NCBI GenBank assembly: GCA_029547745.1
Contig: JAKPOQ010000004.1
Span: forward strand, 2,737-66,736
DNA from: Actinomycetes bacterium
GTDB taxonomy: Bacteria > Actinomycetota > Thermoleophilia > UBA2241
Direction: 5' to 3'
DNA length: 64,000 bases
The notes below the pieces were generated by a model, which was not told where the DNA came from, made no database searches, and saw nothing but the letters and a program-made list of their open reading frames with translations. The translations under genes were made by a program, and so were the position numbers. This document shows positions 968 to 48,142 of the stretch, piece after piece; the stretch's first letter is position 1, and every line of letters begins with the position of its first letter.

Positions 968-1350
968 CAGCCCTGCCCCTCCTTCTGCAGCAGCCCCCTG
1001 ACCTTGGCGATGAGGGTCGCGGGCTCCACCGGCTTCGACAGGAACTCGTCGACCGGGACCATCTCCTCGTCCTTGTCGATGTTGAGCCCCATCGCGGCGT
1101 TCACGCTGGTGAGCATGATGATGGGCAGGGTGTGACCCGTCTTGCGCAGCTCGCGCGCCATGTTGAGGCCGTCGTCGGGCTCTTCCATCATGACGTCGAG
1201 AATGAGCAGGTCGGGCTTGCTCTCTTCGATCCGGGCGAGGCCCTCGGCGCGGTTCGACGCGCCCTCGACCTCGTAGCCCTCACGTTCCAGCACGAGCTTT
1301 CCGGCCTCGATGATGTCGGGGTCGTCGTCGACGATCAGGATCTTCGCCAC
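967..1350 (-). CDS. Single-domain response regulator (CheY-like REC), first gene of a REC-NuoE-NuoF operon
   Basis: The 127-aa product starts MAKILIVDDDPDIIEAG, has the phospho-acceptor in LLILDVMMEE and the conserved Lys in SKP. It has no output domain and is translationally coupled to the NuoE-like gene. Confidence 0.85.
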   Translation of the reverse strand: MAKILIVDDDPDIIEAGKLVLEREGYEVEGASNRAEGLARIEESKPDLLILDVMMEEPDDGLNMARELRKTGHTLPIIMLTSVNAAMGLNIDKDEEMVPVDEFLSKPVEPATLIAKVRGLLQKEGQG

Positions 1351-1590
1351 CGCTCACTCCCTCTCTCGCTTGCGTTTCGCCACGCTCAGCACAAGCTGCG
1401 CCGGCGTTCCGTGCGACCGTGTGACCGCGCGACCGTGTCACGATGGTCCGTGGTAAGGCGTCCCGGCGGAGCCGGCTCGAATCGGCCTGACGACGTTCCG
1501 TCGTGGCCAGACTGTCCACACATCTCACGGTGCGGGACGGCCTCGATCGACCCCGATTCTCGCCTGTCACGCGCTCTTGTGCAAGCGGGA

Positions 1591-1700
1591 ACGAAGTCCT
1601 GCCGCCACTCTGCAAGCCTCCTCGAGATCCTGCCTTCGCACCGCAAGCCCCCGCCAGATCCTGCCGCCACACTGAAGGCCTCCGGGATCCATGGCGTTGC
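1591..1700. repeat. Three to four tandem degenerate ~31-bp direct repeats (consensus about GATCCTGCCGCCACACTGCAAGCCTCC) in the promoter region of the REC-NuoEF operon
   Basis: Read directly: gaagtcctgccgccactctgcaagcctcc, gagatcctgccttcgcaccgcaagccccc, agatcctgccgccacactgaaggcctcc, then a more degenerate fourth copy. They lie in the 447-bp intergenic region between 1350 and 1797. The only ORFs here are R-rich artefacts. Confidence 0.55.
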
Positions 1701-1796
1701 CGCACAAGTCCCTTGCGCTCCGGAGGCAGGGGACTGAATGACGGGGGCCGGAGGAGCGCTTGATCAGGGACTGGCGCAATCCCTCCACCTTGCCCT

Positions 1797-3041
1797 TCAG
1801 TCCCGAGCGCGCGCCGCCGGTCCGGCGGCGCGCGCTCTGACGCTTGCCTGGGTGTCGTCCTCGCCGCCGGCTCCGGGTGCGTCCATCAGCGTGACGGTGA
1901 ACGTGCTGCCGACGCCAGGTTCGCTCGTCACCGTCGCTTCGCCGTCGTACATGGTCGCGATCTTGCGCACCGTCGACAGACCGAGGCCGCTGCCGAGCAC
2001 CTTCACGGTGTGCTCGTTCTTGATGCGCGTGAACTCGCGGAAGAGCTTCGCCGCCTCTTCGGGCTTGAGGCCGATGCCGGTGTCGGCGACGGCGATCTCG
2101 ACGCCGCCGTCGAGGCGTCGCAGCACGACGTCGACGCGGCCGCCGTCGCGGTTGTACTTGACCGCGTTCGAGATGAGATTGTTGAGGACGATCTCGACCT
2201 CACCGGCGTCGGCCATGAGCTCGACGTCGTCGGCGGCGCGCAGCTCGACCGTGACGTCGCGGCGCGCGGCTTCGGTGGCGAAGAGGTCGATCGAGGCGCG
2301 GGCCAGTGCGGGCAGGTCCAGCCTGCGGACGGACCGCTCCCGCTGGCCCGACTCGATCCGCGTCAGGTCGAGGAGGTCGGCGATGAGCTTCTTCATGCCG
2401 TCGACGCGGGCGATGCTGCGCTGGACGATCTCGAGGTCTTGACCGCTCTCGGTGGTGGCGAGGATGTTCAAGTAGCCCTCCACCGCGTTGAGCGGCGCCT
2501 TCAGCTCGTGGGCGAGGACGCTGATGAAGTTGAAGCGTACCTGGCGCTTCTCTTCGGCCAGCTTGCGCGCCTGGCGGCTGAGGATGAGCTGGCTCGTCGC
2601 CTTGCGCACCGCGTAGCGGAGCTCGTCGGGCGTGAACGGTTTGGCAAGGAAGTCGTAGGCTCCGAGCTTGGTCGCCTTGACCGCCGTCTCGAAGGTCGCG
2701 TAGGCGGTCACCATGATGGTGAGGACGTCACGCCCCATGGTGCTGAGAGCGTCGAGGACGTCCATGCCGCCGACGCCGGGCAGCTTCAGGTCCAGGAGGA
2801 GCAGGTCGACCGGCCCCCCCTCGCTGAGGTAGACGAGGAAGTCCTCGCCGCTCGTGAAGTAACGATACTCGTAGGTCACGTCGACGAGGACGTCCGGGAC
2901 GTGGACGTGGTACTTCTCGATGATGCGCCGCACGCCTGCGCAGAGCGCTTCCTCGTCGTCGACCATCACGACCTGGAGGACGACCTCCTGCGGGTCCATG
3001 AGGCTTTGCTGGGGCGCGGGCTCGCCCTGTTGGGCGCTCAT
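1797..3041 (-). CDS. Hybrid signalling protein: N-terminal REC domain fused to histidine kinase (HisKA + HATPase_c)
   Basis: The real start is the M of MSAQQGEP. It forms an ATGA overlap with the stop of the upstream hydrogenase-kinase gene (3038..3040). The first ~204 codons of track ORF 1797..3653 are R-rich overlap artefact. REC: VVMVDDEE...LLLLDLKLPG...AKPF. HisKA H-box: VLAHELKAPLNAV. ATPase N/G boxes: NLISNAVKYN, DTGIGL, GSGLGLS. Confidence 0.8.
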   Translation of the reverse strand: MSAQQGEPAPQQSLMDPQEVVLQVVMVDDEEALCAGVRRIIEKYHVHVPDVLVDVTYEYRYFTSGEDFLVYLSEGGPVDLLLLDLKLPGVGGMDVLDALSTMGRDVLTIMVTAYATFETAVKATKLGAYDFLAKPFTPDELRYAVRKATSQLILSRQARKLAEEKRQVRFNFISVLAHELKAPLNAVEGYLNILATTESGQDLEIVQRSIARVDGMKKLIADLLDLTRIESGQRERSVRRLDLPALARASIDLFATEAARRDVTVELRAADDVELMADAGEVEIVLNNLISNAVKYNRDGGRVDVVLRRLDGGVEIAVADTGIGLKPEEAAKLFREFTRIKNEHTVKVLGSGLGLSTVRKIATMYDGEATVTSEPGVGSTFTVTLMDAPGAGGEDDTQASVRARAAGPAARARD

Positions 3042-5092
3042 GACGACGTCATCTCCCGCAGGCTGAACGCGGCGTCGGTCTCCGTCTCGGAGCGGGGCAG
3101 CGAGATCGTGAAGGTCGTGAAGGTCGGGCCCTTGTCCGGGTCGGCGTTGGATTCGACGGCGATCTGGCCGCGATGCATCTTGACGATCCCGTGCGACACG
3201 GCCAGACCGAGGCCGGTGCCCCTGCCCACCTGCTTCGTCGTGAAGAAGGGACTGAACAGCTTGTCGAGGTGGTCGGGAGCGATGCCCGTGCCCTGGTCGG
3301 AGATGGTGATCTGCACCGTCTCGGCGGTACCGTCGAGGGTGATGGTTATCCGTCCGCCGTCGGGCATGGCGTGCTGGGCGTTGGCGAGCATGTTGGTGAT
3401 GACCTGGACGATCTGGTCGCCGTCGATCTCGGCGACGGGGTCGGCCATCTGGTCGTTGACGACGATCTCGACGTCCTCCTCGCGGGGGAACGTGCGCAAC
3501 ACATCTTTGACCAGCGCCCTGAGGTCGGTCGGCTGGCGGACGACGCGGCTCTGGCGGGCGAAGTTCAGGAGCCCCGAGATGATCTTCTTGCAACGATTGG
3601 CCTGATTGACGATCAGCTTCGCGTCGGCCGCCACCAGGGGGTCGTTGTCGCACTCCTCGAGCAGGAGGTTAGCGTGCAGGAGGAGGATGCCGAGCGGGTT
3701 GTTGACCTCGTGGGCGATACCGGCGGCGAGCTGTCCCATGCTGGCCAGGCTCTCGGACTTGACGAGAGCCTCCCTCGTGCTCTCGAGCGAATGGTTCGCC
3801 TCCTCGAGCTCGTCCACGGTGCGGCGCAGGCGTTCGACGGCGTAGGGGAGGCACATCTCGATCTCGGCGAGGCCCTGCCAGACGGCGATGGCGTGCTCGC
3901 GGCAGGTGTCGTAGCCGCAGGCCCCGCAGTCGAGGAGGTCTTTGGGCGACGACTTGCCCATGCGCTCGAGGATCGCTTGCAGCTCCTCCGCGGGCGGTAT
4001 GTGGTCGAGGCGCTGGTCGAAGACGGTGAAGGTGCGCGACAGGTCGAGGTCGGCGAACTCCGCCATTGCGGCCTCCCACGCGGCTTGGTCAAAGACGCGC
4101 TGCCGCTCGCGGGCGGCGCGACTGACTTCCGCACGCCGCGTGAAGACCGGCTCCTCGTGGGTGAATCCGGCGCCCATCACGCAACCGTGACAACACAGGA
4201 TGTCGAGCAGGCGCGCCTCGGTCGCGCCGCTCTTGAAGTCCTCTATTGCGGCGGCGAAGTCGTGTCGCCCGTCGGCGCTGACGATGTCGCCGGTGAGGAG
4301 GTCCTCGCTCAGCCCGGCCGCGCGCAGCAGACCGCGGGTGAGGGGGAAGAGGCCGCCGAGTGCGCCGTGCGGCGGGTCGAAATCGTCGTCCGCCGGTCGC
4401 GAGGCGAGGACGATCCCCTTGCGGGCGAACATCGCGCGCAGCTCGACGAAGGTGAGCGCGGCGTCGACGTCGCCCTCGAACTGCTCGTACGACGCCTCGC
4501 CCTTCTTCGCGATGCAGGGCCCGATGAAGACGATCCTGGCCTCGGGACCGAGCCGCCGGTGTAGGGCGCGGGCGAGGGCGATCATCGGCGACACGATCGG
4601 AGCGAGGTTGTCGACAAGGTCGGGCTGGTACTTGCGCACGTACGAGACGACGGCCGGGCAAGGCGTCGCCATGTAGCGGCCGTCGCGGTCCTCGGCGAGC
4701 AGCTCGGCGTAAGCGCGGGCGACGAGGTCGGCGCCGAACGCGACCTCGTGGACGGAGTCGAAGCCGAGGTCGCGCAGGGCCGCCACGAGGGTCGCCGTGT
4801 CGCAGTCGGTGAACTCGGCGGGGTGACTCGGGGCGACGATCGCAGCCACGTGGGTCGAGGAAGCGAGCAGGGCATCGGTGTCGGCGATGCCGCTGAGGAC
4901 TTCCTTGGCGTTCTGGCTACAGACGGTGACGCAGTTGCCGCACCCGATGCACCGCGTCTCGATGACGCTCGCCTGACCGTCACTGATGGCGATCGCCTTG
5001 ACTGGGCATTCGCGTACGCACGTGTAGCACATGCGGCACTTCTCGCGGATGGTAGTGACGAGCTGCGTGCTGGCGACCCTGTCTTCGTTCAT
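3038..5092 (-). CDS. Sensory [FeFe]-hydrogenase-like protein (HydS-type H-cluster domain plus 2x[4Fe-4S]) fused to a C-terminal histidine kinase
   Basis: The 684-aa product has N-terminal ferredoxin motifs (CRMCYTCVRECP, CIGCGNCVTVC). H-cluster motifs are ATPCPAVVSY (L1-like), IGPCIAKKGE (L2, MPCxxKxxE-like) and DILCCHGCVMGAG (L3-like). Then come HisKA (AHEVNNPLG) and HATPase_c (NMLANAQHAM, DQGTGI, GTGLGL). No PAS domain is recognisable. Confidence 0.85.
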   Translation of the reverse strand: MNEDRVASTQLVTTIREKCRMCYTCVRECPVKAIAISDGQASVIETRCIGCGNCVTVCSQNAKEVLSGIADTDALLASSTHVAAIVAPSHPAEFTDCDTATLVAALRDLGFDSVHEVAFGADLVARAYAELLAEDRDGRYMATPCPAVVSYVRKYQPDLVDNLAPIVSPMIALARALHRRLGPEARIVFIGPCIAKKGEASYEQFEGDVDAALTFVELRAMFARKGIVLASRPADDDFDPPHGALGGLFPLTRGLLRAAGLSEDLLTGDIVSADGRHDFAAAIEDFKSGATEARLLDILCCHGCVMGAGFTHEEPVFTRRAEVSRAARERQRVFDQAAWEAAMAEFADLDLSRTFTVFDQRLDHIPPAEELQAILERMGKSSPKDLLDCGACGYDTCREHAIAVWQGLAEIEMCLPYAVERLRRTVDELEEANHSLESTREALVKSESLASMGQLAAGIAHEVNNPLGILLLHANLLLEECDNDPLVAADAKLIVNQANRCKKIISGLLNFARQSRVVRQPTDLRALVKDVLRTFPREEDVEIVVNDQMADPVAEIDGDQIVQVITNMLANAQHAMPDGGRITITLDGTAETVQITISDQGTGIAPDHLDKLFSPFFTTKQVGRGTGLGLAVSHGIVKMHRGQIAVESNADPDKGPTFTTFTISLPRSETETDAAFSLREMTSS

Positions 5093-5107
5093 CTGTGAAG
5101 TGTCACC

Positions 5108-5518
5108 TCAGTCCGGCCGGTCGCCGAGCAGCTCGGCGACCTTGGCGAGCAGGGCGCCGCCGTCGATGGGCTTGTCGAAGTACGCGTCGACCCGCATCTT
5201 CTCCATGTCCTCGGCGGAGCGCGGACGGAAGTCGAGACCGAGGGCGCTGGACACGGACGTCGACATGATGATCGGCACCGCGGCGGTCTGCGGGTCGCCC
5301 TTCAGGGAGGCGGAGAAGGAGAATCCGGCGTCGAGACTGTCCATCATCAGGTCCGTGATGATGAGGTCGGGGACCTCGTCGGCGATGCGCGCCTGCGCTT
5401 CGGCAGGGTCGGCGGCCGTGGCGACCCTGTACCCCGCCTTCTCGAGGATGATGCGGTTGATCTCGAGGAAGTCGAAGTCGTCGTCGACGATGAGGATCAG
5501 TCTCTTCGTGTCACTCAC
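5108..5518 (-). CDS. Single-domain response regulator (REC only)
   Basis: The 136-aa product starts MSDTKRLILIVDDDFDFLE, with phospho-acceptor LIITDLMMD and conserved Lys DKP. There is no output domain. Confidence 0.85.
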   Translation of the reverse strand: MSDTKRLILIVDDDFDFLEINRIILEKAGYRVATAADPAEAQARIADEVPDLIITDLMMDSLDAGFSFSASLKGDPQTAAVPIIMSTSVSSALGLDFRPRSAEDMEKMRVDAYFDKPIDGGALLAKVAELLGDRPD

Positions 5519-5657: not shown

Positions 5658-7430
5658 TCAGACGCGTTCGTGTTCGAAGTAGTGGGTGTGCAGGAGGTCG
5701 TGGGAGAGCTCCCCACAGGGCGCTCCGAGGTACTCCTCATAGAGTGCGCGGACAGCGGGGTTCTCGTGCGACTTGCGCAGCTCGCGGCCCTCGTCCTCCT
5801 TGAAGATCGCCTGCATGCGCGCCTTGCGGACCTCGTCGGTCGTGAAGCGGGGCTGGCCGCCTCCGCCGATGCAACCGCCGGGGCAGGTCATGACCTCGAC
5901 GAAGTGGTACTCGGCTTCGCCGTCCCGTATCTGGTCGATGACCTTCTGGGCGTTGCCGAGGCCGTGGGCGACGGCGACCTTGAGGTCCACGCCCTCCAGG
6001 AACGACCACTCGCCCCTGGCGCCCTGGACCTTGATGCTCGCGGTCTTGACGCCCTCGAGGCCCTCGATCGGTTCGACGTGCAGGTCGGGGAACGGGAAGG
6101 GCGTCTCGGTGACGATCTCCCACACCGTGCGTAGCGCCGCCTCCATGACACCGCCGGTGTTGGCGAAGATGTCGGCCGCGCCGGTCGAGATGCCGAGCGG
6201 AGCGTCCATCTTCTCGTCGGGCAGCGCGCGGAAGTCGATGCCGGCCTGGGTGATCATCGCGCCCAGCTCACGTGTCGTGAGGACGATGTCGACGTCGCGG
6301 ACCCCGCTGGCCGTCATCTCGGGGCGCGCCGCCTCGAACTTCTTCGCCGTGCAGGGCATGACCGAAACGACGACCATGTCCTCGGGCCTCACGCCGATCT
6401 TGTCGGCGTAGTAGGTCTTGCTGATCGCCCCGAACATCTGCTGCGGGCTCTTGCAGGTGCTGAGGTTGGCGAGCATGTCGGGGTTGAAGTGCTCCATGTA
6501 GTTGATCCAGCCCGGGGAGCAGCTCGAGAACTGGGGCAGGACCACGGGCTCGCCGTCGACCAGCGCCCGCTTGAGGCGCTCGAGGAGCTCGGTGCCCTCT
6601 TCCATGATGGTAAGGTCCGCGGCGAAGTCCGTGTCGAAGACGGCATCGAACCCCATGCGCCGCAAGGCGGCGACCATCTTGCCCGTGACGAGTGTCCCCG
6701 GCGGGTAGCCGAAGCACTCGCCGAGCGCGGCGCGGATAGCCGGCGCCGTCTGCACGACGACGGTCTTCGTCGGGTCTTCAAGGGCCGCCCAGACCTCGTC
6801 GATCTGGTTGCGCTCGGTGATGGCGCCGACCGGGCACACGGCGGCGCACTGGCCGCACTGCACGCAGACGACGTCGTCGAGAGGAGAGCCGAAGGCCGGC
6901 CCGATGAGGGTGTCGAAGCCGCGGTCCTGGGCGAACAGCGCGCCGACGCCCTGGACCTCGTTGCATACCGTCACGCAACGCCGGCACGAGATGCACTTGC
7001 CGGTGTCGCGGACGAGCGCCGGTGTCGAGTCGTCGACGAAGCGCCGGGTCTTCTCGCCGGTGTAGGTGAGCTCACCGATGCCGAGCTCCTCCGCCAGCGT
7101 GCGGAGCTCGCAGTCGGCGCTGCGCGGGCAGACCTTGCAGTCGCCGTCGTGCTCGCTGAGGAGCAGCTCGACGACCGTCCGCCGTCCGGCGCGCACCTTG
7201 CCGGTGTTCGTCTTCACCACCATGCCCTCGGTTGCCGGCTGGGTGCACGACGCCACGAGGGTGCGCGCCCCCTCGACCTCGACCAGACAGACGCGGCAGG
7301 CGCCGATCGCCTGGACGTCCTCGAGGTAGCAGAGGGTGGGGATGTTCACGCCCGCCTGGCGGGCGGCTTGGAGAACCGAGGTCCCTTCGGGGACCTCGAC
7401 CTTGATGTCGTCGATGGTCAGTGTCGGCAT
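5658..7430 (-). CDS. hydA: [FeFe]-hydrogenase catalytic subunit HydA (M3-type: 2Fe-2S + His-ligated 4Fe-4S + 2x4Fe-4S + H-cluster domain)
   Basis: Start at MPTLTIDDIKVEV (residue 36 of track ORF 5658..7535) with GGAGCGG SD. The upstream 35 codons overlap hydB. H-cluster motifs are SSCSPGW, MPCTAKKFE and EVMTCPGGCIGGGGQP. A NuoG-like N-terminus (CYLEDVQAIGACRVCLVEV) is present. Confidence 0.9.
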   Translation of the reverse strand: MPTLTIDDIKVEVPEGTSVLQAARQAGVNIPTLCYLEDVQAIGACRVCLVEVEGARTLVASCTQPATEGMVVKTNTGKVRAGRRTVVELLLSEHDGDCKVCPRSADCELRTLAEELGIGELTYTGEKTRRFVDDSTPALVRDTGKCISCRRCVTVCNEVQGVGALFAQDRGFDTLIGPAFGSPLDDVVCVQCGQCAAVCPVGAITERNQIDEVWAALEDPTKTVVVQTAPAIRAALGECFGYPPGTLVTGKMVAALRRMGFDAVFDTDFAADLTIMEEGTELLERLKRALVDGEPVVLPQFSSCSPGWINYMEHFNPDMLANLSTCKSPQQMFGAISKTYYADKIGVRPEDMVVVSVMPCTAKKFEAARPEMTASGVRDVDIVLTTRELGAMITQAGIDFRALPDEKMDAPLGISTGAADIFANTGGVMEAALRTVWEIVTETPFPFPDLHVEPIEGLEGVKTASIKVQGARGEWSFLEGVDLKVAVAHGLGNAQKVIDQIRDGEAEYHFVEVMTCPGGCIGGGGQPRFTTDEVRKARMQAIFKEDEGRELRKSHENPAVRALYEEYLGAPCGELSHDLLHTHYFEHERV

Positions 7431-7440
7431 TGTCCGCTCC

Positions 7441-10400
7441 TCACCCTTCCGCGTGGTACTTGCCGTAGTCGCAGCGCAGACACCGTTTCGCCTCGGCCAG
7501 GGCCACCTCGGCGGCCCAGCCCAGTTCGACCTCATCGAAGCTCTTCACACGCTGCGCCACCGGGAGCTCCTCGATCGTGTGGCGCTCCACCGGCACCGGG
7601 TCGGCGTCCGGGTCGAAGGCCGTCGGCGGCTCGATGTCGCGCCGCCAGAACGCATGGTTCGCGCCCGTGAGGAGCTCGTCGATGCCGGCGGCGGCGCGCT
7701 CGCCGGCGCCGATCGCCTCGACCACCGAAGAGGGGCCGGTCATGGCGTCGCCGCCGGTGAAGACCCAGTCGACCGAGGTCCGCCCGGTCTTGCGGTCGGC
7801 GGCGAGGTAGCCCCGCCGGTCGAGCTCGATCGGCGTGCCGTCGAGGACGGCCGCGGCGTCGAGCTTCTGCCCGATGGCGGCGATCACCGTGTCGGCCTCG
7901 ACCACGAACGCAGGGTCGTGGCCGGCCACGGGCTGGCGCCGCCCGCTCCTGTCGTAGTCGCCAAGGGCCATGCGCGTGCAGCGCACGCCCGTCACGTTGC
8001 CCTCGGCGTCACGGAGGATCTCCTCCGGGGCCACGAGGGTCATGATCTCGATGCCCTCGAGGTCGGCGGCGTCGATCTCCTCGCTCCACGCCGGCATCTC
8101 GGCCCGCGTGCGACGGTAGAGGATCTTGACCGACTCGGCGCCGAGGCGGATGGCGGTCCGGGCGGCGTCGATGGCCGCGTTCCCGCCGCCGATGACCGCC
8201 ACGTTCGTGCCGACCCTGGCCGTGCCGTGGAGGTTGTAGTCCTTGAGGAAGGAGAGGCCGTCGTACACGCCGGGACCGTCCTCGCCGGGGACGCCGATGC
8301 CCATGCCTCGCGGGGCGCCGACGGCGACGAACACGGCTTCGTAGCCCTCGTCGCGGAGGCTCTGCAGCGTGAAGTCGCGGCCGAGCGCCTTCCCGTACTC
8401 GAAGTGCACGCCCATGCCCTCGATCATCGCGACCTCGCGCGCGAGCTCCTTGCGTGGCAGGCGGTAGGCCGGGATGGCCTGGACCAGCATGCCGCCGGCC
8501 TTGGGCTCCGCCTCGAAGACGACCGGCTTGTATCCGAGCCGGGCGAGGAAGTAGGCGGCGGAAAGGCCGGCGGGTCCGGAGCCGACGATCGCCACCTTGC
8601 GGCGGGCGTTCTCGGCGTTCTCGCGGATCTCCGGGAGCTGCGGCGTCGTCTCCTGCTCGACCATGAAGCGCTTGACCTGACGGATCGCCAGCGGGCCGTC
8701 GAGGGTCGCGCGCATGCACTTGCGCTCGCACGGATGGAAGCACACGCGAGCGCAGATGCTCGCCAGCGGGTTCCGCTCGCGATGGAACCTGAGCGCCTCG
8801 TCGTACCTGCCCTCGGCCACAAGGCTCACGAACCCGGGGATGTTGACGTTCGCCGGGCACGCGTTGGAACAGCGGGCTTTGAACAGGCTTGAGCAGACGC
8901 CGGCCTCGCAGTACTTGTCCTTGATGTGGGCCTCGTACTCGTGGCGGAAGTGGCGGATGGTCGAGAGGACCGGGTTCGGCGCCGTCTGCCCAAGGCCGCA
9001 GAGGGCCGTCTGGCTGATGGTCTCGCCGAGCGCGATGAGGCGCTCGATGTCGCCTTCTTCACCCTCGCCGTTGCAGATGCGTTCCACGATCTCGAGCATC
9101 CGCTTGGTGCCCACGCGGCAGGGCGTGCATTTGCCGCAGCTCTCCTCTTGGGTGAACTCGAGGAAGAAGCGGGCGATGTCGACCATGCAGGTGTCCTCGT
9201 CCATGACGATGACGCCGCCGGAGCCCATGATGGCGCCGAGCTCCTGCAACGTGGCGTAGTCGACCGGCACGTTGAGGTGCTCACGGGGGATGCAGCCGCC
9301 GGAGGGCCCGCCGAGCTGCGCCGCTTTGTAGGTCTTGCCGTTGGGGATCCCGCCGCCGACGTCGTAGATGAGCTCGCCGAGCTGCATGCCGATCGGCACT
9401 TCGACGAGGCCGGTGTGCTGGACGTTGCCCCCGAGGGCGAAGACCTTGGTCCCCTTGCTCTTCTCGGTGCCGGTGCTCGCGTACCACTCGGCGCCCTTGA
9501 GGATGATCGGGGCGATGTTGGCGAAGGTCTCGACGTTGTTGAGCACACTGGGCTTGCCCCAGAGGCCCGAGACGGCCGGGAAGGGAGGCCGCGGGCGAGG
9601 CTCACCGCGATGGCCCTCGATGGAGGTCATCAGCGCGGTCTCCTCGCCGCAGACGAAGGCGCCCGAGCCCATGCGGATCTCGAGGTCGAAGTCGAAGCCG
9701 CTCCCGAGGATGTCCTTGCCGAGCAGCCCGTACTCGCGCGCCTGGTTCAGGGCGTGCTCGAGACGCTCGACGGCAAGCGGATACTCGGCGCGCACATACA
9801 CGTACCCCTGGTGCGCGCCGATGGCGTAGGCGCCGATGATCATGCCCTCGATGAGGGAGTGCGGGTCGCCTTCGAGGACGGAGCGGTCCATGAACGCGCC
9901 GGGGTCGCCTTCGTCGGCGTTGCACAACATGTACTTGACGTCGCTGCCCTGCTGCTGGGCGAACCGCCACTTCATGCCAGTGGGAAAGCCGGCGCCGCCG
10001 CGACCGCGCAGGCCGCTGGCCAGCACCTCCTCGACGACCTGTTCGGGGGTCATCTCGGTGACGACCTTGGCGAGGGCTTGGTACCCGTCGCGGGCGATGT
10101 ACTCGCCGATGTCGAGGGGGTCGATGATCCCGCAGTTCCGCAGCACGATCTTGACCTGGCGGTTGAAGAACGGGATGTCCGTCATCTCCGCCTGGGTCTT
10201 GTCGGTACCGGGAGCGTGGCTCACGAGGCGCTCGACGACGCGGCCCTTGAGCAGGTGCTCCTCGACGATCTCGGGGACGTCCTCGACGTGGACGTTCTGG
10301 TAGAAGACCCCGTCCGGGTAGACCAGGGCCACCGGGCCACGCACGCAGGGGCCGAGACAGCCGGTCTCCACGACGTCGACCTCGCCGGCCAGGTCTCTCT

Positions 10401-10506
10401 TCTCGAGCTCGGCGCGTACGGCCTGGCTCACCTCGAGCGACCCGGAGGCGATGCAGCCGCCGCCCGTGCAGACCAGGAAATGGGTTCTCGATGCAGTCAT
10501 AGTCAT
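7441..10506 (-). CDS. hydB: HydB-like NuoF flavoprotein with N-terminal thioredoxin-like [2Fe-2S] domain, fused to a C-terminal GltD/SudA-like NAD(P)H-dependent FAD oxidoreductase domain
   Basis: 1021 aa. NuoF motifs: GLRGRGGAGFPTGMKW, CNADEGDPGAF, CGKCTPCRVG. GltD-like module: 2x[4Fe-4S] (CEAGVCSS...CSNACP; CARVCFHPCERKC), FAD dinucleotide fold VAIVGSGPAGLSAAYFL and a second GG motif VAVIGGGNAAIDAA. Confidence 0.85.
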   Translation of the reverse strand: MTMTASRTHFLVCTGGGCIASGSLEVSQAVRAELEKRDLAGEVDVVETGCLGPCVRGPVALVYPDGVFYQNVHVEDVPEIVEEHLLKGRVVERLVSHAPGTDKTQAEMTDIPFFNRQVKIVLRNCGIIDPLDIGEYIARDGYQALAKVVTEMTPEQVVEEVLASGLRGRGGAGFPTGMKWRFAQQQGSDVKYMLCNADEGDPGAFMDRSVLEGDPHSLIEGMIIGAYAIGAHQGYVYVRAEYPLAVERLEHALNQAREYGLLGKDILGSGFDFDLEIRMGSGAFVCGEETALMTSIEGHRGEPRPRPPFPAVSGLWGKPSVLNNVETFANIAPIILKGAEWYASTGTEKSKGTKVFALGGNVQHTGLVEVPIGMQLGELIYDVGGGIPNGKTYKAAQLGGPSGGCIPREHLNVPVDYATLQELGAIMGSGGVIVMDEDTCMVDIARFFLEFTQEESCGKCTPCRVGTKRMLEIVERICNGEGEEGDIERLIALGETISQTALCGLGQTAPNPVLSTIRHFRHEYEAHIKDKYCEAGVCSSLFKARCSNACPANVNIPGFVSLVAEGRYDEALRFHRERNPLASICARVCFHPCERKCMRATLDGPLAIRQVKRFMVEQETTPQLPEIRENAENARRKVAIVGSGPAGLSAAYFLARLGYKPVVFEAEPKAGGMLVQAIPAYRLPRKELAREVAMIEGMGVHFEYGKALGRDFTLQSLRDEGYEAVFVAVGAPRGMGIGVPGEDGPGVYDGLSFLKDYNLHGTARVGTNVAVIGGGNAAIDAARTAIRLGAESVKILYRRTRAEMPAWSEEIDAADLEGIEIMTLVAPEEILRDAEGNVTGVRCTRMALGDYDRSGRRQPVAGHDPAFVVEADTVIAAIGQKLDAAAVLDGTPIELDRRGYLAADRKTGRTSVDWVFTGGDAMTGPSSVVEAIGAGERAAAGIDELLTGANHAFWRRDIEPPTAFDPDADPVPVERHTIEELPVAQRVKSFDEVELGWAAEVALAEAKRCLRCDYGKYHAEG

Positions 10507-10517
10507 GTCACCCGCTC

Positions 10518-10889
10518 TCAGGCTTCGATCAGGTAGGCGGTCACGGGCTCGCCTCCCAAGAGGTGCTTCTGAACGATCTCGCGGACCTTGGCCTCATCCA
10601 GGAGGCCGTAGCGGTACATCGTGCCGTCGGCATGGGTCACGGTCGCCATGGGCTCCTCTTCACAGAGCCCGGCGCAGCCGGTCTGGTGCAAGCTCACGTC
10701 GCTGACGCCCGCTTCTCCCATCTCGGCCATGAACGAGGCGAGCACGCCACGGGCGCCGGCGGCGATGCCGCACGTGCCCATGTGGACGGTCACCTGGGTC
10801 TCCTTGCGCCCTTGACGCACGTTGAGGCCGGCCTTGGCCGCCTCGGCGAGCGCCTTGAGCTGGTCGGGGCTGGTGATCTTCGCGGCCAT
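10518..10889 (-). CDS. Thioredoxin-like [2Fe-2S] ferredoxin (HndB-like small subunit)
   Basis: The 123-aa product starts at MAAKITSPDQ, in the last third of track ORF 10518..11408 (the earlier part is R-rich overlap with hydC). Cys pattern: HMGTCGIAAG...GCAGLCEEEP. Confidence 0.75.
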   Translation of the reverse strand: MAAKITSPDQLKALAEAAKAGLNVRQGRKETQVTVHMGTCGIAAGARGVLASFMAEMGEAGVSDVSLHQTGCAGLCEEEPMATVTHADGTMYRYGLLDEAKVREIVQKHLLGGEPVTAYLIEA

Positions 10890-10891
10890 CG

Positions 10892-11443
10892 TCAGGCGCT
10901 CCTTTCGGCCAACGCCGGCTCGCCGGCGTACTGGGCGAGGATCTCGTTGACGCGTTTCGGCTTGACGCGATGGTGGACGTCCTCGTCGACCATGATCACC
11001 GGGGCCAACCCGCAGGCGCCGAAGCAGCGCCCGATGGCGAGCGAGAACCGGCGATCGTCGGTGGTCCCCCCGATGTCGATGTCGAGTTCTTTCTTGAGGG
11101 CGTCCAACACCTGCACGCCGCCTCTGACGTAGCACGCCGTGCCGAGGCAGACGCGGACGAGGTGCTCGCCGCGCGGCACCGTGGTGAAGAACGAGTAGAA
11201 GCCGACGACGCCGGCGACCTCGCTGTACGGCTTGCCCAGCCGGCGCGCGATGTGCTTGAGGGCGACCTCCGGCAGGTAGCCGAAGATGCCCTGGGCGAGT
11301 TGCAGGACGGGGATGAGGGCGCCGGGCTTGCCACGATAGTCCTCGATCACCGCGTCGAGGCGTTCGAGGAGCTCTTCCTCGGTCGGCTCCTCGGCGCAGC
11401 ACTCGCACCGCTTGACGTCTTCGTTCATTCGGCTCTCCTTCAC
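10892..11443 (-). CDS. hydC: HydC, NuoE-like [2Fe-2S] subunit
   Basis: 183 aa; NuoE motifs VCLGTACYVRG and GRCFGACGLAPVIMV. Confidence 0.85.
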   Translation of the reverse strand: MKESRMNEDVKRCECCAEEPTEEELLERLDAVIEDYRGKPGALIPVLQLAQGIFGYLPEVALKHIARRLGKPYSEVAGVVGFYSFFTTVPRGEHLVRVCLGTACYVRGGVQVLDALKKELDIDIGGTTDDRRFSLAIGRCFGACGLAPVIMVDEDVHHRVKPKRVNEILAQYAGEPALAERSA

Positions 11444-11480: not shown

Positions 11481-11975
11481 TCAGTCCAGTGATCGTTGAA
11501 AGGCGCGGAGGGTGTCGAGCCGGGCGGGCAACGTCTCCCGTCCCAGCACGACGAGTTCTCCGTCCTCGCGCAGTTCGACGCTGAAGGCCACCTCCGGGTT
11601 GGTCACCGTCATCGTCAGGATGCTCAGGGCGACGTCGCCGGCCGGTGGCCGGTCGACGTTGGTGAGGCTCATGCGCGCCTCGACGGCTGTCCCACCGAGG
11701 CGCTCCGAGGAGCTGACGCTGAGTCCGCCGCCGGCGGCCTCGGCCTCCTGCCTGAGCAGGCTGAGGCCGAGGCCGGTCTTCTTGCCCGGCTTGGTGGTGT
11801 AGAAGGGGTCCAGGGCGGCGTCGGGCGGAACCGGCAAGCCGGGGCCGTCGTCCTCGACCGTGAGGGCGAGCAGATCGGCCCGCCGGTCGACGGCGAGCGT
11901 CACCGCGACACGCGTCGCCCCGGCGCGCACCGAGTTCTCGAGAAGCTCGAGGAGGTAGAGCGAGAGGTCATGCAT
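11481..11975 (-). CDS. Small GHKL/HATPase_c-like ATPase (anti-sigma-factor/Ser-kinase-like) conserved in [FeFe]-hydrogenase operons
   Basis: 164 aa. N-box-like ENSVRAG, G-box DDGPGLP and GLGLSL. The start overlaps the PHP gene stop by 8 nt. Confidence 0.65.
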   Translation of the reverse strand: MHDLSLYLLELLENSVRAGATRVAVTLAVDRRADLLALTVEDDGPGLPVPPDAALDPFYTTKPGKKTGLGLSLLRQEAEAAGGGLSVSSSERLGGTAVEARMSLTNVDRPPAGDVALSILTMTVTNPEVAFSVELREDGELVVLGRETLPARLDTLRAFQRSLD

Positions 11976-12708
11976 CGGCCACGCCCCTGCCTCCGTCGGC
12001 GCGCAGCGCCAGGGTCAGCTCGGCGAACGTCGCCTCGGCGACCGTCAGTCGCGTGCCGGCCGCCCCGAGGTCACTGAGGTAGTGGCCGTCCGACGAGCGT
12101 ACGACCGGCAGCCCGAAGGCCCGGAAGCGCGCCTCGGCCTCGCTCCCTGAAGCGACATGGCGCGACACCTCGACGGCGTCGAACCTTGCGTCGCGCGGGA
12201 AGACGCCGAGCTGGCTGATGACGCTGAACGACGGACGGTCCACATGCGCCGCCACGGCGAGGCCGCCGTGACGGTGGACGAGGTCCACGCAGGCGGTGAC
12301 GCCGAGCGGCGTCGCCGTCGCCAGGGCGCGCGTCTCGCGGGCGACGATGTCGCCGTGCGCGTCGAGCACGTGCTGTTCGCCGAAGAACTCGATGTAGCCG
12401 TCTCCGGCTTCGGGGAGCAGCGCCGTCACCTCTGCGCCGGCCGTCTCGGCGGCCGCGGCGTGGGGGAAGAGGCCGAGGACGTGGCACTCCTCGACGCTCG
12501 TGATCTCCATGCCGGCGACCACGGTGAGGCGCGCGTCGGCCGCCGCCTGGACGGCGGCGACGTTGCGCGCGCTGTTGTGGTCGCAGATCGCGATCATCGC
12601 CAGGCCCTCAGCCAGCGCTCCGGCCACGATGGCGGGCGGCGTCATCGCGTCGTCCGCGCAGGGCGAGAGCGCGGTGTGCACGTGCAGGTCTGCCAGGATG
12701 TCGATCAC
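11968..12708 (-). CDS. PHP (polymerase/histidinol-phosphatase) domain metal-dependent phosphoesterase
   Basis: 246 aa. Starts MIDILADLHVHTALSP (PHP motif I), then ICDHNS (motif II) and further His/Asp ligands. Confidence 0.75.
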   Translation of the reverse strand: MIDILADLHVHTALSPCADDAMTPPAIVAGALAEGLAMIAICDHNSARNVAAVQAAADARLTVVAGMEITSVEECHVLGLFPHAAAAETAGAEVTALLPEAGDGYIEFFGEQHVLDAHGDIVARETRALATATPLGVTACVDLVHRHGGLAVAAHVDRPSFSVISQLGVFPRDARFDAVEVSRHVASGSEAEARFRAFGLPVVRSSDGHYLSDLGAAGTRLTVAEATFAELTLALRADGGRGVADA

Positions 12709-12760: not shown

Positions 12761-13111
12761 TCAGGCGCCGCATCCTCTCACGCCGCGGGTGTAGAGCTGG
12801 CCGACGACCTCGAAGGTGTCGTCGTCGGCCCCGTACAGCGCGAGGCCCTCCTCGGTCGCCTTGGCGACGACGTCCTCGTCCGGTCGTCGCCCGCCGCTGA
12901 ACACCACGGCGGCGATGTCGGCGTGGCCGGCCACGGCGACGACGTTGAGGTGGACCTGAAGGGTCACCAGCAGTCCGCCGGCGGGGGCGTGCGCGAGGAC
13001 ATCGCTCAGGAGGTCGGACGCGTACCCCCTGGTGACCTCGGCGGTGGCGTCGCCGGCGCCGGCGTTCAGCTCGGTCAAGCCGAGCTCGGCGACGATCTCC
13101 TGGAGCTTCAT
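12761..13111 (-). CDS. DRTGG-domain protein
   Basis: The real start is MKLQEIVAELG (residue 38 of track ORF 12761..13222), an ATGA overlap with the upstream gene stop. About 116 aa. It resembles the C-terminal domain of the rex fusion at 14697..15746. Confidence 0.6.
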   Translation of the reverse strand: MKLQEIVAELGLTELNAGAGDATAEVTRGYASDLLSDVLAHAPAGGLLVTLQVHLNVVAVAGHADIAAVVFSGGRRPDEDVVAKATEEGLALYGADDDTFEVVGQLYTRGVRGCGA

Positions 13112-14694
13112 CGCACCCTCTCTTCGTCGGTTCGTGCGCCGCTCTGCGATGCCTGGGCGGCGTAGGGGCAGAGGTCGCGCGCGGCGCGGCCGGTGATGAC
13201 GTCTTCGGCGAAGGCCGCGCATGTGGGCGCGCCGCAGACGGTGCAGTCTTTGCCGGGCAGACCGTCGGCCACGCGTTCGAGCTCGGTGAGCTTGCGGATG
13301 GCGGTCGCCATGTCGGGGTCGAGCCGGATGCCGGGCCGGGGCTGGTACGCCAGCCTCCGCTCATGCGCGCGCCCGCCGGCGGCCACATCGGCCGCCGCCC
13401 AGCGCCACGCCGACAACGAGGGCTCGTTCTGCAGGAGAGGCGACCCGAGACAGCCGCCGTCGCACAGGTACGGTTCGACGACGGGGACGTCTGTGAGCAG
13501 GCCGTTCTCGAGCTGGTCGAGGACGGCGACCACCCGGCCCGCGCCGGTGACGACGAGCACGTCGTCCTCGTCGGTGGGCCGGCTGCCGCTCGGCGCCGGC
13601 GCGGGAGGCCCTTGACCGGCGGCGACGAGCGGGGCGAGCAGCTTGCGCAGGGCGCCGGGCGTCGTGATGGCGCCCTGTGCCGTGGGGCGCTGCGCGAGCA
13701 GGGCGCTGCGCTGGCCGGGGCACGAGACCACGAACACGGCGTCAGCGTCGGCGAGGTCGAGCTGCGCGGCCTCGAGCGGCGACGCCAGCGGCGCCAGGTG
13801 AGGGAGGAGCGCTGGGAAGCGGAGCTCGATCAGCGCGACGACGCCCGGGCAGACGGGCGAAACGACGGGCGACGGGCCCACCGGCGCCGCGGCGCGCTCG
13901 CTCACGGCAGCGCGCAAGGCGGCTTCATAGCCGTGCGTCACGACGACGTCCACCGCTCCCAAAGCGCGGAGCGCGGCGAGGGCCGCCCCGGGCCCGCCGA
14001 ACGGGTAGTAGTCGACGAGCACGCCCGGCGGCACGACGACCGTGGCGCCGTCGAGGGACGGCGGGGATGCGGAGCCGGCGACCGTCAGCGCCCGGGGCGT
14101 GCACGCCGCGATACAGGCCGCGCAGTCGACGCAGAGATGCCCGAGGACGGTGGGCGCCCCGTCGCGCACCCGCACGGCTCCCGTCGGGCAGGCGAGGACG
14201 CAGCGCCGGCAGTCGCGGCAGAGCGCGGCGCGCGCGACGAGCGACGTCGGTCGCTCGTCGCGCGCGCCGCGCTCTGCGCGCAGCAGGATGGTGAAGCTGA
14301 CCGTCGTGCCCTTGCCGACCTCGGACGTGACGCGCAGGCGGTCGCTGTTGCGGCGGATGTTGGGCAGGCCGAGGCCCGCGCCGAAACCCAGAGCGCGGGC
14401 CTCGGGCGGCGCCGTCGAAAAACCCTCGCGCATGGCCGCCTCGATGTCCGGGATGCCGGGGCCGCCGTCGCTGACGCTCACGTCGAGCTGGCCTTCGTCC
14501 ACGGCCGCTTCAAGAACACCACCTTGAGCGGCATGGATGACGACGTTCATCTCGGCCTCGTACGCGGCGATCACGGCGCGACGGACGGTCTCACTTTCGG
14601 CGCCGATCCGCTTGAGATGCTGCTTGAGGGCGCGCGATGCGGCGCCGGCGCCGGTGAAGTCGCGGGCCTGGATGTCGAAGCGCAGGGTCTCCAC
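13108..14694 (-). CDS. Fusion protein: GHKL/HATPase_c-like domain + 2x[4Fe-4S] ferredoxin domain + C-terminal RnfB-type FeS (PF04060-like) domain
   Basis: This is the 3' 529 codons of track ORF 13108..15375; the 5' part of that ORF is an R-rich shadow of rex. The putative GTG start overlaps the rex stop. Motifs: NVVIHAAQGG, DGGPGIPD and GLGLPNI (ATPase); CRDCRRCVLACP and CVDCAACIAAC (ferredoxin); CDGGC...LPGKDCTVCGAPTCAAFAEDV (RnfB N-terminal-type FeS). Confidence 0.65.
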   Translation of the reverse strand: METLRFDIQARDFTGAGAASRALKQHLKRIGAESETVRRAVIAAYEAEMNVVIHAAQGGVLEAAVDEGQLDVSVSDGGPGIPDIEAAMREGFSTAPPEARALGFGAGLGLPNIRRNSDRLRVTSEVGKGTTVSFTILLRAERGARDERPTSLVARAALCRDCRRCVLACPTGAVRVRDGAPTVLGHLCVDCAACIAACTPRALTVAGSASPPSLDGATVVVPPGVLVDYYPFGGPGAALAALRALGAVDVVVTHGYEAALRAAVSERAAAPVGPSPVVSPVCPGVVALIELRFPALLPHLAPLASPLEAAQLDLADADAVFVVSCPGQRSALLAQRPTAQGAITTPGALRKLLAPLVAAGQGPPAPAPSGSRPTDEDDVLVVTGAGRVVAVLDQLENGLLTDVPVVEPYLCDGGCLGSPLLQNEPSLSAWRWAAADVAAGGRAHERRLAYQPRPGIRLDPDMATAIRKLTELERVADGLPGKDCTVCGAPTCAAFAEDVITGRAARDLCPYAAQASQSGARTDEERVR

Positions 14695-14696
14695 CG

Positions 14697-15746
14697 TCAG
14701 TCGCGTCCGTTCCCGGAGAGGTGCTGGTAGATCCGCCCGCAGGTCTCGAACACACCGTCGGGAGAGACCATGAGCAGCGTCCCCGTCCCGTGCGCCAGGG
14801 CGACGAGCTCGTCGTCCGGTTCGACACCGTTCACGAAGCAGATACCGGGCACGTCCATGAGTTCGGCGACGCGCAACATCTGTACGCTGGCCAGGTTGCT
14901 GACGAGGAGGGTCTTGTCGGACGCCTCGTTGAGCAGGTCGCTGACGCGGTCCCCGGCGTAGATCTTCGTGATCCCGGTACCGCCGGGTGCGCCAGGGGTC
15001 ACGATGCGCGCCCCGATGAGGCGGGCAAGGTCTTCGAGCTTCATCGCCCTCCTCGCAAGCAGCGTCTCGAGTTGCTTCACGATCGGTCCGATCTCGCTGC
15101 CGCGGTTGTCGCCGGGTGCCTCCACCTCGGCCTCGCGGCGCCGCGAGAAGAACGCCGCCGATTCCAGGGCGGCGGTCAGGTCCATATACTCCACGAAGAT
15201 CTCGCGCGGAAGGTCGAGCGGGACGGGGGCGAAGCTGATGATGCTCTTCACGCCGGCGCGTACGAGCGTCTCGGCGCTGGCCTGTGCGGCCCTTGCGGGT
15301 ACCGTCAGCACGGCGATCTCGATCCCGAGGTTGCGCACGAGTTCCTCCATGCGTGCGGCGTCCATGACGCGGCACGATTGCACGGTGGTCCCCACCAGTC
15401 GTGGGTCTGTGTCGAACGCGACGACGATAGCGGCTGAGGGGCTGGCCGCCGCGAGGTGCTGGAGCACTGCCCGGCCGAGGTTGCCGACCCCGACCAGGGC
15501 GACCTCCTGGCGGACGGCGCCGTCGAGGAAGCTGCTGAGGCTCTCGATGCAGAGCTCCACGTCGTAACCCTTCTTCGGGCTGCCCGAGTAGCCGATCGCC
15601 ATCAGGTCGCGCCGCACTTGCGCGGCGCTGACCACGGCGTGGCGCGCGAGTTCGTGTGAGTAGATGTTGCGGACGCCCTGGTCGCGCAGCGACACGAGGA
15701 GACGTCGATAGCGGCTGAGGCGGGCGACGGTCTTCCGTGAGACCAC
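14697..15746 (-). CDS. rex: Rex redox-sensing (NADH/NAD+) transcriptional repressor fused to a C-terminal DRTGG domain
   Basis: 349 aa with GTG start. The Rex wHTH (TVARLSRYRRLL...IYSHELA...VSAAQVRRDL) and Rossmann GxGxxG (LVGVGNLGRAVL) end around residue 215. An additional ~115-aa domain (MKLEDLARLIG...YAGDRVSDLL...) follows with no intervening stop. Confidence 0.8.
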   Translation of the reverse strand: MVSRKTVARLSRYRRLLVSLRDQGVRNIYSHELARHAVVSAAQVRRDLMAIGYSGSPKKGYDVELCIESLSSFLDGAVRQEVALVGVGNLGRAVLQHLAAASPSAAIVVAFDTDPRLVGTTVQSCRVMDAARMEELVRNLGIEIAVLTVPARAAQASAETLVRAGVKSIISFAPVPLDLPREIFVEYMDLTAALESAAFFSRRREAEVEAPGDNRGSEIGPIVKQLETLLARRAMKLEDLARLIGARIVTPGAPGGTGITKIYAGDRVSDLLNEASDKTLLVSNLASVQMLRVAELMDVPGICFVNGVEPDDELVALAHGTGTLLMVSPDGVFETCGRIYQHLSGNGRD

Positions 15747-22432: not shown

Positions 22433-22663
22433 CCTTCGCGCGAGGCGACAGCGTCTCAAGTGACGGCGTTCACCCTGTATGGCACTGCGGTCCGTCTCAA
22501 AGACCCGTCTTGGCCCGAACGGCCTCACCGCGACGGGCCAGCCCGCCGTGGGCGTTCGTCGCGCGGCCGGCGGCAAGGTAGAGTGTTAAGGGACGAAAGG
22601 GGCACAGGGTGCGTCACCTGGCCGGTCGGCCGTGCACGGCCTCGAAGCGTTGGAGGAGAGAGT

Positions 22664-48129: not shown

Positions 48130-48142
48130 CGGCGCCAAGGTC

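Follow-up and report, generated by a model that had tools for sequence, protein, structure and literature searches.

Here we report on hydB::gltD, a fused flavoprotein gene of an uncultured Thermoleophilia bacterium (Actinomycetota), which is located on the minus strand at positions 7441–10506 of a 64,000-nucleotide stretch of contig JAKPOQ010000004.1 (assembly GCA_029547745.1; hereafter the window). The gene encodes a protein of 1021 amino acids (aa), which would be the NuoF-like subunit, B, in an [FeFe] hydrogenase of the HydABC(D)/Bfu type. The domain that carries clusters B3 and B4 in canonical enzymes appears to have been swapped, exactly at a His/Cys hinge, for a module of the Stn/NfnABC type with two [4Fe-4S] clusters, FAD and an NADP(H) site. 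We are practically certain of this reading at the level of domain anatomy. With a probability of about 0.5 for the full mechanism, the complex is a hydrogenase that couples H2 to both NAD(H) and NADP(H), the latter taking the low-potential role of ferredoxin. The architecture itself has already been described as 'sub-type I BfuB' (Yang et al. 2024, mSystems; PMC11406978), and the window provides a member from an additional lineage, the Thermoleophilia.

The gene is a single, uninterrupted open reading frame (ORF) that starts with ATG and comprises 1021 codons; a reading on the plus strand was rejected because the translation of that strand contains an internal stop. The Pfam domains, all above gathering scores, follow each other in the order 2Fe-2S_thioredx (residues 7–83), Complex1_51K (163–332), SLBB (356–404), NADH_4Fe-4S (443–527), Fer4_20 (530–620) and Pyr_redox_2 (637–935). 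NCBIfam yielded a NuoF-family match (TIGR01959) at residues 131–528 and NAD(P)-binding, GltD-type matches at residues 497–1013. The initial annotation had described a NuoF–GltD fusion of 1021 aa, and both the intact frame and the domain order, with boundaries drawn by hidden Markov models that place Fer4_20 and Pyr_redox_2 behind a NuoF half, bear this out. It is extremely improbable that adjacent hydB and gltD-like genes were joined by a frameshift in sequencing or assembly. Separate gltD-like genes do adjoin hydA in group A2 of the HydDB classification, and no support for the artefact itself was found. The identical protein, however, is encoded on four independent metagenomic contigs, and the full-length architecture occurs in more than 120 protein clusters and more than 40 species-level genomes. 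The junction is conserved with a fixed spacing of 8 residues, and the G + C content at third codon positions is 0.94 throughout the ORF, matching that of the neighbouring genes.

Conservation was assessed with a set of 41 full-length fusions, consisting of the window protein and 40 homologues from species-representative genomes (47–89% identity). Residues 5–545 match the solved HydB/BfuB chains (A. woodii HydB, A. mobile BfuB) with an E value of about 1e-241 and approximately 70% identity. The thioredoxin-like [2Fe-2S] domain of the B5 site (residues 7–83; positions 10258–10488; PF01257) has its cysteines (Cys13, 18, 50, 54) conserved in 37–41 of the 41 proteins. The NuoF core (residues 131–528; positions 8923–10116), which is covered by TIGR01959 and the Complex1_51K, SLBB and NADH_4Fe-4S domains, contains the FMN/NAD(H) site and the B1 [4Fe-4S] cluster; its glycine loop and the four B1 ligands (Cys457, 460, 463, 503) are invariant. 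The similarity to canonical HydB extends through the hinge motif HI(K/R)DKxCxAGxC (HIKDKYCEAGVC) and ends at about residue 545; in the alignment, the hinge of the fused protein is matched by HIRDKKCPAGVC of the solved chains.

The hinge (H527-x5-C533-x4-C538; positions 8893–8928) is the fusion junction and corresponds to the site assigned to Zn or to B2 in solved HydB/BfuB structures. H527, C533 and C538 are invariant in all 41 proteins, a candidate fourth ligand, C478, is present in only 21 of them, and the site may bind either Zn or a [2Fe-2S] cluster. Past the hinge, unfused relatives have a tail of about 60 residues with eight cysteines, which hold the two [4Fe-4S] clusters B3 and B4. This tail is absent from the fused HydB; instead, the first GltD-type cysteine follows the last hinge cysteine at a distance of 8 residues in every member of the set. 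In HydB of T. maritima, the Zn site (three Cys, one His) is the hinge of a mobile C-terminal 'bridge' domain (PMC9499530). In the cryo-electron microscopy structure of T. sibiricus NfnABC, ferredoxin is located between the C-terminal domain of BfuC and the B3/B4 domain of BfuB, and the low-potential path is defined as C1–B3/B4–ferredoxin (PMC12018979). Since B3/B4 is the docking place of ferredoxin in solved Bfu enzymes, the fusion deletes the ferredoxin-docking element and sets a different redox module on the same hinge.

Residues 545–1014 align over their full length with GltD-type NADPH modules. The module begins with an iron–sulfur (FeS) domain (residues 546–620; positions 8647–8871; Fer4_20), in which the alignment with StnC, NfnA and NfnB identifies Cys546, 550, 585, 589, 593 and 597 together with Lys612 as predicted ligands of two [4Fe-4S] clusters. 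It continues with the FAD- and NADP(H)-binding Rossmann domains (residues 637–935; positions 7702–8598; Pyr_redox_2), which contain the motifs GSGPAG, GGGNAA and GGD (919–920) as well as E665, R682 and Y797-R798-R799, and ends with a permuted segment (residues 986–1013; positions 7468–7551), whose terminal C1009-x2-C1012 completes the FeS ligand set and is present in all 41 proteins. The predicted cofactor sites are thus all in place, namely GxGxxG and GGD for FAD, GxGxxA and an Arg pair for NADPH, and two ligand sets for [4Fe-4S] clusters. We take the Arg pair, which forms the 'YRR' 2'-phosphate motif known from the family, to argue for NADP(H) over NAD(H).

In addition to the B1 cysteines, the three hinge residues, the eight cysteines of the module and Lys612, the residues with complete or nearly complete conservation among the 41 homologues include G642, G644, G647, E665 and the GGD motif of the FAD site, R682, and G773, G775, A778 and Y797-R798-R799 of the NADPH site. 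Judging by this pattern, the module is under strong purifying selection. The replacement of the 2x[4Fe-4S] ferredoxin-like domain by a complete FeS/FAD/NADPH module, which had been proposed from the sequence of the window, is supported by the alignments and by the conservation of the ligands; the FAD- and NAD(P)H-binding residues are invariant or nearly so. At sequence level, a single subunit of a HydABC-type enzyme would accordingly hold FMN, FAD and two nucleotide sites.

The best matches of the module in the Protein Data Bank are NfnA of C. saccharolyticus (9bov_A, 370 bits) and StnC of S. ovata (8oh5_C, 337 bits); the scores are 328 bits for NfnB of T. maritima (4ylf_B), 277 for NfnL of P. 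furiosus (5jca_L) and 211 for GltD (2vdc_G). The segment FDEVELGW..AEAKRCLRC, which opens NfnB, sits at the extreme C-terminus of the fused protein, behind the module as in NfnA and StnC; it aligns with the N-terminus of T. maritima NfnB (residues 11–43) and with the post-GltD segment of NfnA and StnC. Lys612, found in all 41 homologues, aligns with K170 of StnC, whereas NfnB has Glu at this position. In StnC, K170 is a strictly conserved ligand of the FAD-proximal cluster, with Glu as its counterpart in the bifurcating NfnB, and structure and mutagenesis have identified StnC as an NADPH-oxidising, non-bifurcating input module (PMC10482914). Because of the shared circular permutation and the Lys at the K170 position, the module is assigned to the Stn/NfnABC type; as far as the sequence tells, it is non-bifurcating and not NfnB-like. 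The label 'Nfn-like', which the initial annotation had attached to the enzyme, is therefore misleading. In a structure predicted with AlphaFold2 from 35 sequences (pLDDT 73.8, pTM 0.50), both halves fold, with a dip in confidence at residues 542–545, and the modelled C-terminal half superposes on NfnB (4ylf_B; TMt 0.80, root-mean-square deviation 2.8 Å). A fold search returned no solved chain that spans both halves (TMq ≤0.42).

The fused gene belongs to an operon with the order hydC-hydD-hydB-hydA on the minus strand, with gaps of 2–11 nucleotides. The gene hydA (5658–7430) encodes an [FeFe]-hydrogenase catalytic subunit of the M3 type (590 aa), identified by Pfam, NCBIfam and its motifs. It scores 883 bits against the NCBIfam model FeFe_hydrog_A6 (cut-off 765), has the full set of accessory FeS domains, keeps the L2 and L3 motifs of the H-cluster as well as the cluster cysteines, and is closest to HydA1 of A. 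woodii (E = 5.7e-187) and T. kivui. Its L1 motif, SSCSPGW, with Ser at the position of the proton-relay Cys, was considered as an oddity and dismissed because the same Ser occurs in the bifurcating A. woodii HydA1. The gene hydC (10892–11428), which precedes the B-subunit gene in 75 of 80 loci, encodes a NuoE-like [2Fe-2S] subunit of 178 aa (PF01257, E = 8e-47), with Cys94, 99, 135 and 139 as the predicted ligands of cluster C1. Between hydC and hydB lies the gene of a small HydD/HndB-like protein with a thioredoxin fold (10518–10889; 123 aa), which is found in the same position in Thermoleophilia and many other loci. The protein has a weak match to an NCBIfam 2Fe-2S ferredoxin family and none in Pfam, and possesses only three cysteines (C40, C72, C76) versus the four expected for a thioredoxin-like [2Fe-2S] domain. 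In this DNA of 68–70% G + C, both hydC and hydD were obscured by ORFs in overlapping frames; a 296-aa ORF with a GTG start (10518–11408) that masks the two genes was rejected as a spurious overlap. There is no NfnA-like (PyrK-like [2Fe-2S]/FAD) partner in the operon or the 64-kb window, and the window contains no ferredoxin, Rnf or Nfn gene.

In the mechanism that we propose, H2 and protons would be exchanged at HydA, and the electrons would travel through the FeS chain of HydA and cluster B1 to FMN, where NAD(H) would react as in canonical enzymes. The branch that usually leads from C1 of HydC through B3/B4 to ferredoxin would be rerouted from C1 to the two GltD-type [4Fe-4S] clusters, FAD and NADP(H). 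The FAD would be an ordinary two-electron/one-electron converter that exchanges hydride with NADP(H), rather than a further site of bifurcation. Overall, the complex would catalyse 2 H2 + NAD+ + NADP+ <-> NADH + NADPH + 2 H+, without ferredoxin. Gating of the C1 domain would be needed to prevent a futile short circuit from NADPH to NAD+, and this need favours a coupled over an uncoupled mechanism. We infer the electron path, the substitution of NADPH for ferredoxin and the energetic coupling from sequence only; within that limit, a non-standard bifurcating or confurcating hydrogenase linked to NADH and NADPH, as suggested in the initial annotation, is still the most plausible interpretation. 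Based on the physiological potentials of NAD (−280 mV), NADP (−380 mV) and ferredoxin (−500 mV) given in Table 1 of PMC9304861, our own Nernst calculation yields equilibrium H2 pressures of about 3 Pa for NADH alone, about 145 Pa for NADH plus NADPH, and about 15 kPa for NADH plus ferredoxin; the proposed reaction could accordingly evolve H2 up to some 100–150 Pa. Recombinant HydAB of S. aciditrophicus produced 2.2–40 Pa H2 from NADH (PMC7311640).

Several points weigh against this mechanism. The placement of the two halves relative to each other in the AlphaFold2 model is unreliable, as indicated by the pTM value, so that their geometry and the electron-transfer distance from the GltD-type clusters to C1 or B2 are not fixed by the model. 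The sequence does not tell which nucleotide the FMN site prefers, and our literature search found no experimental study in which a protein of the fused architecture was characterised biochemically. In NfnB, the distal [4Fe-4S] cluster is itself a ferredoxin site, and ferredoxin could therefore still dock on the module. That ferredoxin may still be relevant is also hinted at by the cultured syntroph Pelotomaculum terephthalicicum JT, whose locus (L023, 8786–20534) comprises hydC, a HATPase gene, hydD, hydB::gltD (1011 aa) and hydA, directly followed by six rnfCDGEAB-like genes (assigned from N-terminal sequences only). Finally, a glutamate-synthase-like protein accompanies the fused subunit in some genomes, which means that the module may have other electron partners.

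If ferredoxin did dock on the distal [4Fe-4S] cluster of the module, the two clusters would be the equivalents of B3/B4, FAD and NADP(H) would form an extra port, and the enzyme would exchange electrons among four substrates (H2, NAD, ferredoxin and NADP), merging the activities of HydABC with those of an Nfn-like enzyme. The two [4Fe-4S] clusters of NfnB do form a path to ferredoxin in NfnAB (PMC10482914), the module is set on the hinge that otherwise bears the ferredoxin-docking domain, and the Rnf-like operon beside the fused operon of P. terephthalicicum would fit a role of ferredoxin. We nevertheless consider such an enzyme unlikely: clusters of the Stn/NfnA type link FAD to an internal FeS chain and not to ferredoxin, the ferredoxin surface of Bfu enzymes, made up of the C-terminal domain of BfuC and the small ferredoxin-like domain, is replaced here, and neither the operon nor the window contains a ferredoxin gene. 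It is likewise rather improbable that the loss of B3/B4 has abolished bifurcation altogether and left an uncoupled hydrogenase with two cofactors, in which electrons are exchanged at either site, with NADH at FMN or with NADPH at FAD. In S. wolfei and S. aciditrophicus, experiments have shown HydB proteins without B3/B4 to be non-bifurcating and independent of ferredoxin (PMC7311640; summarised in PMC11406978), and FAD of the StnC type does not bifurcate. An ungated path between FAD and FMN, however, would act as a transhydrogenase and short-circuit the NADPH and NADH pools; the parts associated with gating (the B5 domain, the hinge and HydC) are retained with invariant ligands, and the same genome already has a separate operon with a short HydB next to the fused one.

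The postulate of Yang et al. (2024), which is also implicit in the term 'Nfn-like', is that the FAD of the module is a second bifurcating centre that operates as in NfnB beside the FMN–FeS centre (PMC11406978). The module has the fold of NfnB (TMt 0.80), and R682, the counterpart of R201 in NfnB, is conserved in all 41 homologues. The same Arg, though, is present in StnC, where the contact to N5 is absent, and the position of the Glu ligand of NfnB is occupied by Lys throughout the set, as in the non-bifurcating StnC. Together with the higher scores against StnC and NfnA than against NfnB, and with the lack of an NfnA-like partner in the operon that could serve as a second exit from the flavin, this makes two bifurcation centres a distinctly improbable arrangement.

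The fused protein differs from each of the systems to which it can be compared. It shares with canonical HydABC/Bfu enzymes (A. woodii, 7q4v; T. kivui, 8a6t; T. maritima, 7p5h; the NiFe-HydABCSL of A. mobile, 7t2r) the subunits HydA and HydC, the B5 site, the FMN/NADH core, B1 and the hinge, with an identity of about 62–70% between its HydB core and that of A. woodii. The B3/B4 domain, a defining part of the BfuBC core, is absent, and FAD and an NADP(H) site are present in its stead. StnABC/NfnABC (Nfn-Bfu; 8oh5, 9bov, 9n5u) have the same type of NADPH module, with the Lys ligand and the permuted C-terminal CxxC, and a BfuBC-type core. In these complexes, the module is part of the A (NuoG-like) subunit and serves as a mid-potential input, B3/B4 and ferredoxin are kept, and there is no hydrogenase; in the window enzyme, it is located on the B subunit and replaces B3/B4, and HydA contributes a third reaction. 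NfnAB (NfnB/NfnL; 4ylf, 5jca) has the same fold (TMt 0.76–0.80), FAD, an NADPH site and two [4Fe-4S] clusters, but the FAD of NfnB bifurcates, and its Glu-ligated proximal cluster, its N-terminal CxxC and its NfnA partner all have no counterpart here.

The HydB subunits of S. wolfei Hyd1ABC and S. aciditrophicus HydAB also lack B3/B4, and the enzymes are independent of ferredoxin (PMC7311640); these HydB proteins are truncated and the lost domain was not replaced, whereas the window fusion has the NADPH/FAD module and the B5 domain. In the 'glutamate synthase-linked' [FeFe] group A2 of HydDB, a GltD-type NAD(P)H module is likewise associated with HydA (PMC5037454), although as a separate subunit without NuoF; the partner in the window has both. 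The rule for group A2 ('GltD ... but not NuoF') excludes partners that contain NuoF, and the window enzyme would consequently be classed as A3; the wording of the rule also implies that the combination of GltD and NuoF had been encountered before the description in 2024. An analogous insertion, an NfnB-like NADPH module of about 500 aa in the ferredoxin domain of a bifurcating subunit, is known from HdrA of ANME-1 (PMC9012536), which belongs to a different, archaeal family with FAD-based bifurcation and is likewise uncharacterised. Closest is the sub-type I BfuB of Hydrogenedentota, in which B3/B4 is replaced by DPD_II (2x[4Fe-4S]) and a C-terminal FAD/NAD(P) domain, within a BfuABC(D) cluster with or without BfuD (PMC11406978); the operon in the window has hydD, and a homologue from Hydrogenedentota (L045) is 69% identical to the window protein. 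The second bifurcating FAD centre was proposed there as a possibility, from genomes and without biochemistry, whereas the residues examined here point to a non-bifurcating FAD of the Stn type.

The full architecture was found in more than 120 protein clusters (69–100% identity), chiefly from metagenome-assembled genomes of Thermoleophilia and other Actinobacteria, and full-length fusions make up at least 12 clusters when a level of 50% identity is applied. Among species-representative genomes, the fusion occurs in Nitrospirota, Verrucomicrobiota, Lentisphaerota, Acidobacteriota, Spirochaetota, Fibrobacterota, Armatimonadota, Atribacterota, Desulfobacterota, Chloroflexota, Bacillota, Gemmatimonadota and Hydrogenedentota; P. 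terephthalicicum JT is a cultured host. Yang et al. (2024) listed relatives from Spirochaetota, Pseudomonadota, Planctomycetota, Verrucomicrobiota, Kiritimatiellota and Thermodesulfobacteriota, including Syntrophus gentianae and Desulfotignum balticum (PMC11406978). Among the works consulted, the fusion is described only in that study, and not in the Bfu-family paper, the Stn papers, Losey 2020, the '[FeFe] Fantastic' review, the Nfn review or HydDB.

Neighbour-joining trees of the NuoF core (residues 130–538) were calculated for 41 fused and 28 unfused B subunits with 100 bootstraps. Neither the fused nor the unfused state was monophyletic in any of the bootstrap trees, and a single origin of the fusion was therefore rejected. 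Fitch parsimony required 3–4 changes of state in 95 of the 100 trees and never a single one, against an average of 22 when the labels were shuffled; because the trees are simple and distance-based and their internal branches are short, the number of swaps is approximate. The ferredoxin-like and GltD-type endings have thus been exchanged repeatedly at the hinge, at least 2–4 times, a pattern that alternative endpoints of one electron branch would be expected to show.

The partners of the fused B subunit are not limited to [FeFe] hydrogenases, and the downstream gene differs among loci. A formate dehydrogenase gene (fdhA) follows in five loci (L021, L022, L024, L037, L046), and two others (L038, L040) were also counted as paired with FdhA; several of the fusion-paired fdhA genes have an in-frame TGA (selenocysteine) after the residues NNVDHCARL. 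In L025 (15664–19870) and L030 (15570–17054), the fused B subunit is encoded with an A subunit of NuoG-like or molybdopterin fold and the small and large subunits of a NiFe hydrogenase, an arrangement that resembles NiFe-HydABCSL; L025 has an additional, unfused NuoE/NuoF pair in between. In three further loci (L028, 13477–15849; L033, 3697–5999; L042, 13093–15361), the fused gene is followed by genes for a HoxU-like 2Fe-2S/4Fe-4S protein of about 230 aa and a Glu_synthase (PF01645) protein of about 530 aa. These may encode a Bfu-type glutamate-synthase-like enzyme, which may hint at the source of the GltD module. The genome of L033 is binned as a Thermoplasmatales archaeon, and horizontal gene transfer or a binning error is possible. 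It is a tentative view, held at slightly worse than even odds, that NADP(H) replaces ferredoxin as the low-potential partner of the Bfu core in the window enzyme and in the sister complexes with FdhA and NiFe hydrogenase, and that these would catalyse ferredoxin-independent bifurcation or confurcation between the two nucleotide pools.

Upstream of hydC, the minus strand of the window encodes a stand-alone HATPase_c protein of 164 aa (11481–11975), a PHP-domain protein (11968–12708), a 116-aa ORF (12761–13111), a HydS-like protein of 528 aa with HATPase_c_2, 4Fe-4S, partial H-domain and FeS domains (13108–14694), and a Rex-like regulator of 349 aa (14697–15746); these assignments are based on Pfam and precomputed annotation. 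The P. terephthalicicum cluster likewise contains the small HATPase gene, located between hydC and hydD. A promoter-like site precedes the accessory genes on the minus strand (15838–15810). No Rex operator was found near the operon, and one match at position 58886 is at chance level.

A second [FeFe]-hydrogenase operon is located directly downstream, also on the minus strand (1–967). It leaves the window at the left edge and is complete only on contig L081. The window contains its NuoE-like gene (470–967; 165 aa) and a NuoF-like gene cut by the window start (1–473); the operon encodes a short NuoF-like HydB of 399 aa without thioredoxin-like and ferredoxin-like domains, a type that does not bifurcate in S. 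wolfei or S. aciditrophicus, and a HydA2 of 650 aa. The region between the two hydrogenase operons (967–5518, minus strand) encodes a response regulator (5108–5518), a sensory protein of 684 aa that resembles [FeFe] hydrogenases and is fused to HisKA/HATPase domains (3038–5092; similar to HydDB group C1), a hybrid histidine kinase with a receiver domain (1797–3041) and a second response regulator (967–1350). Together they look like an H2-sensing two-component relay and a possible switch between the two enzymes. Elsewhere in the window, a 1036-aa BcrAD/BadFG-type activase with DUF2229, a combination typical of activators of 2-hydroxyacyl-CoA dehydratases or benzoyl-CoA reductase-like enzymes, and a 439-aa ORF without a Pfam match follow each other on the plus strand (45019–49435); there are also genes for a CoA-transferase (22460–23647) and an H+-pyrophosphatase (25636–27774).

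This study adds a further lineage, sequence-based predictions and candidate cultured hosts to what is known of the fused B subunits. The site of ferredoxin and the role of B3/B4 are open questions in the bifurcation mechanism of HydABC/Bfu enzymes, and ferredoxin docked at B3/B4 was first seen in 2025. A widespread natural variant that deletes exactly this domain makes it possible to test directly whether bifurcation at the core can serve acceptors besides ferredoxin. If the proposed mechanism is true, nature would have carried out an experiment in which the B3/B4 exit of Bfu enzymes proves to be a plug that can be swapped, and the variant could define a class of enzymes, linked to H2, formate or NiFe, in which the NADH and NADPH pools are balanced independently of ferredoxin. 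Fermenting and syntrophic bacteria with such an enzyme could then produce H2 at an approximately 50-fold higher partial pressure than with NADH alone.

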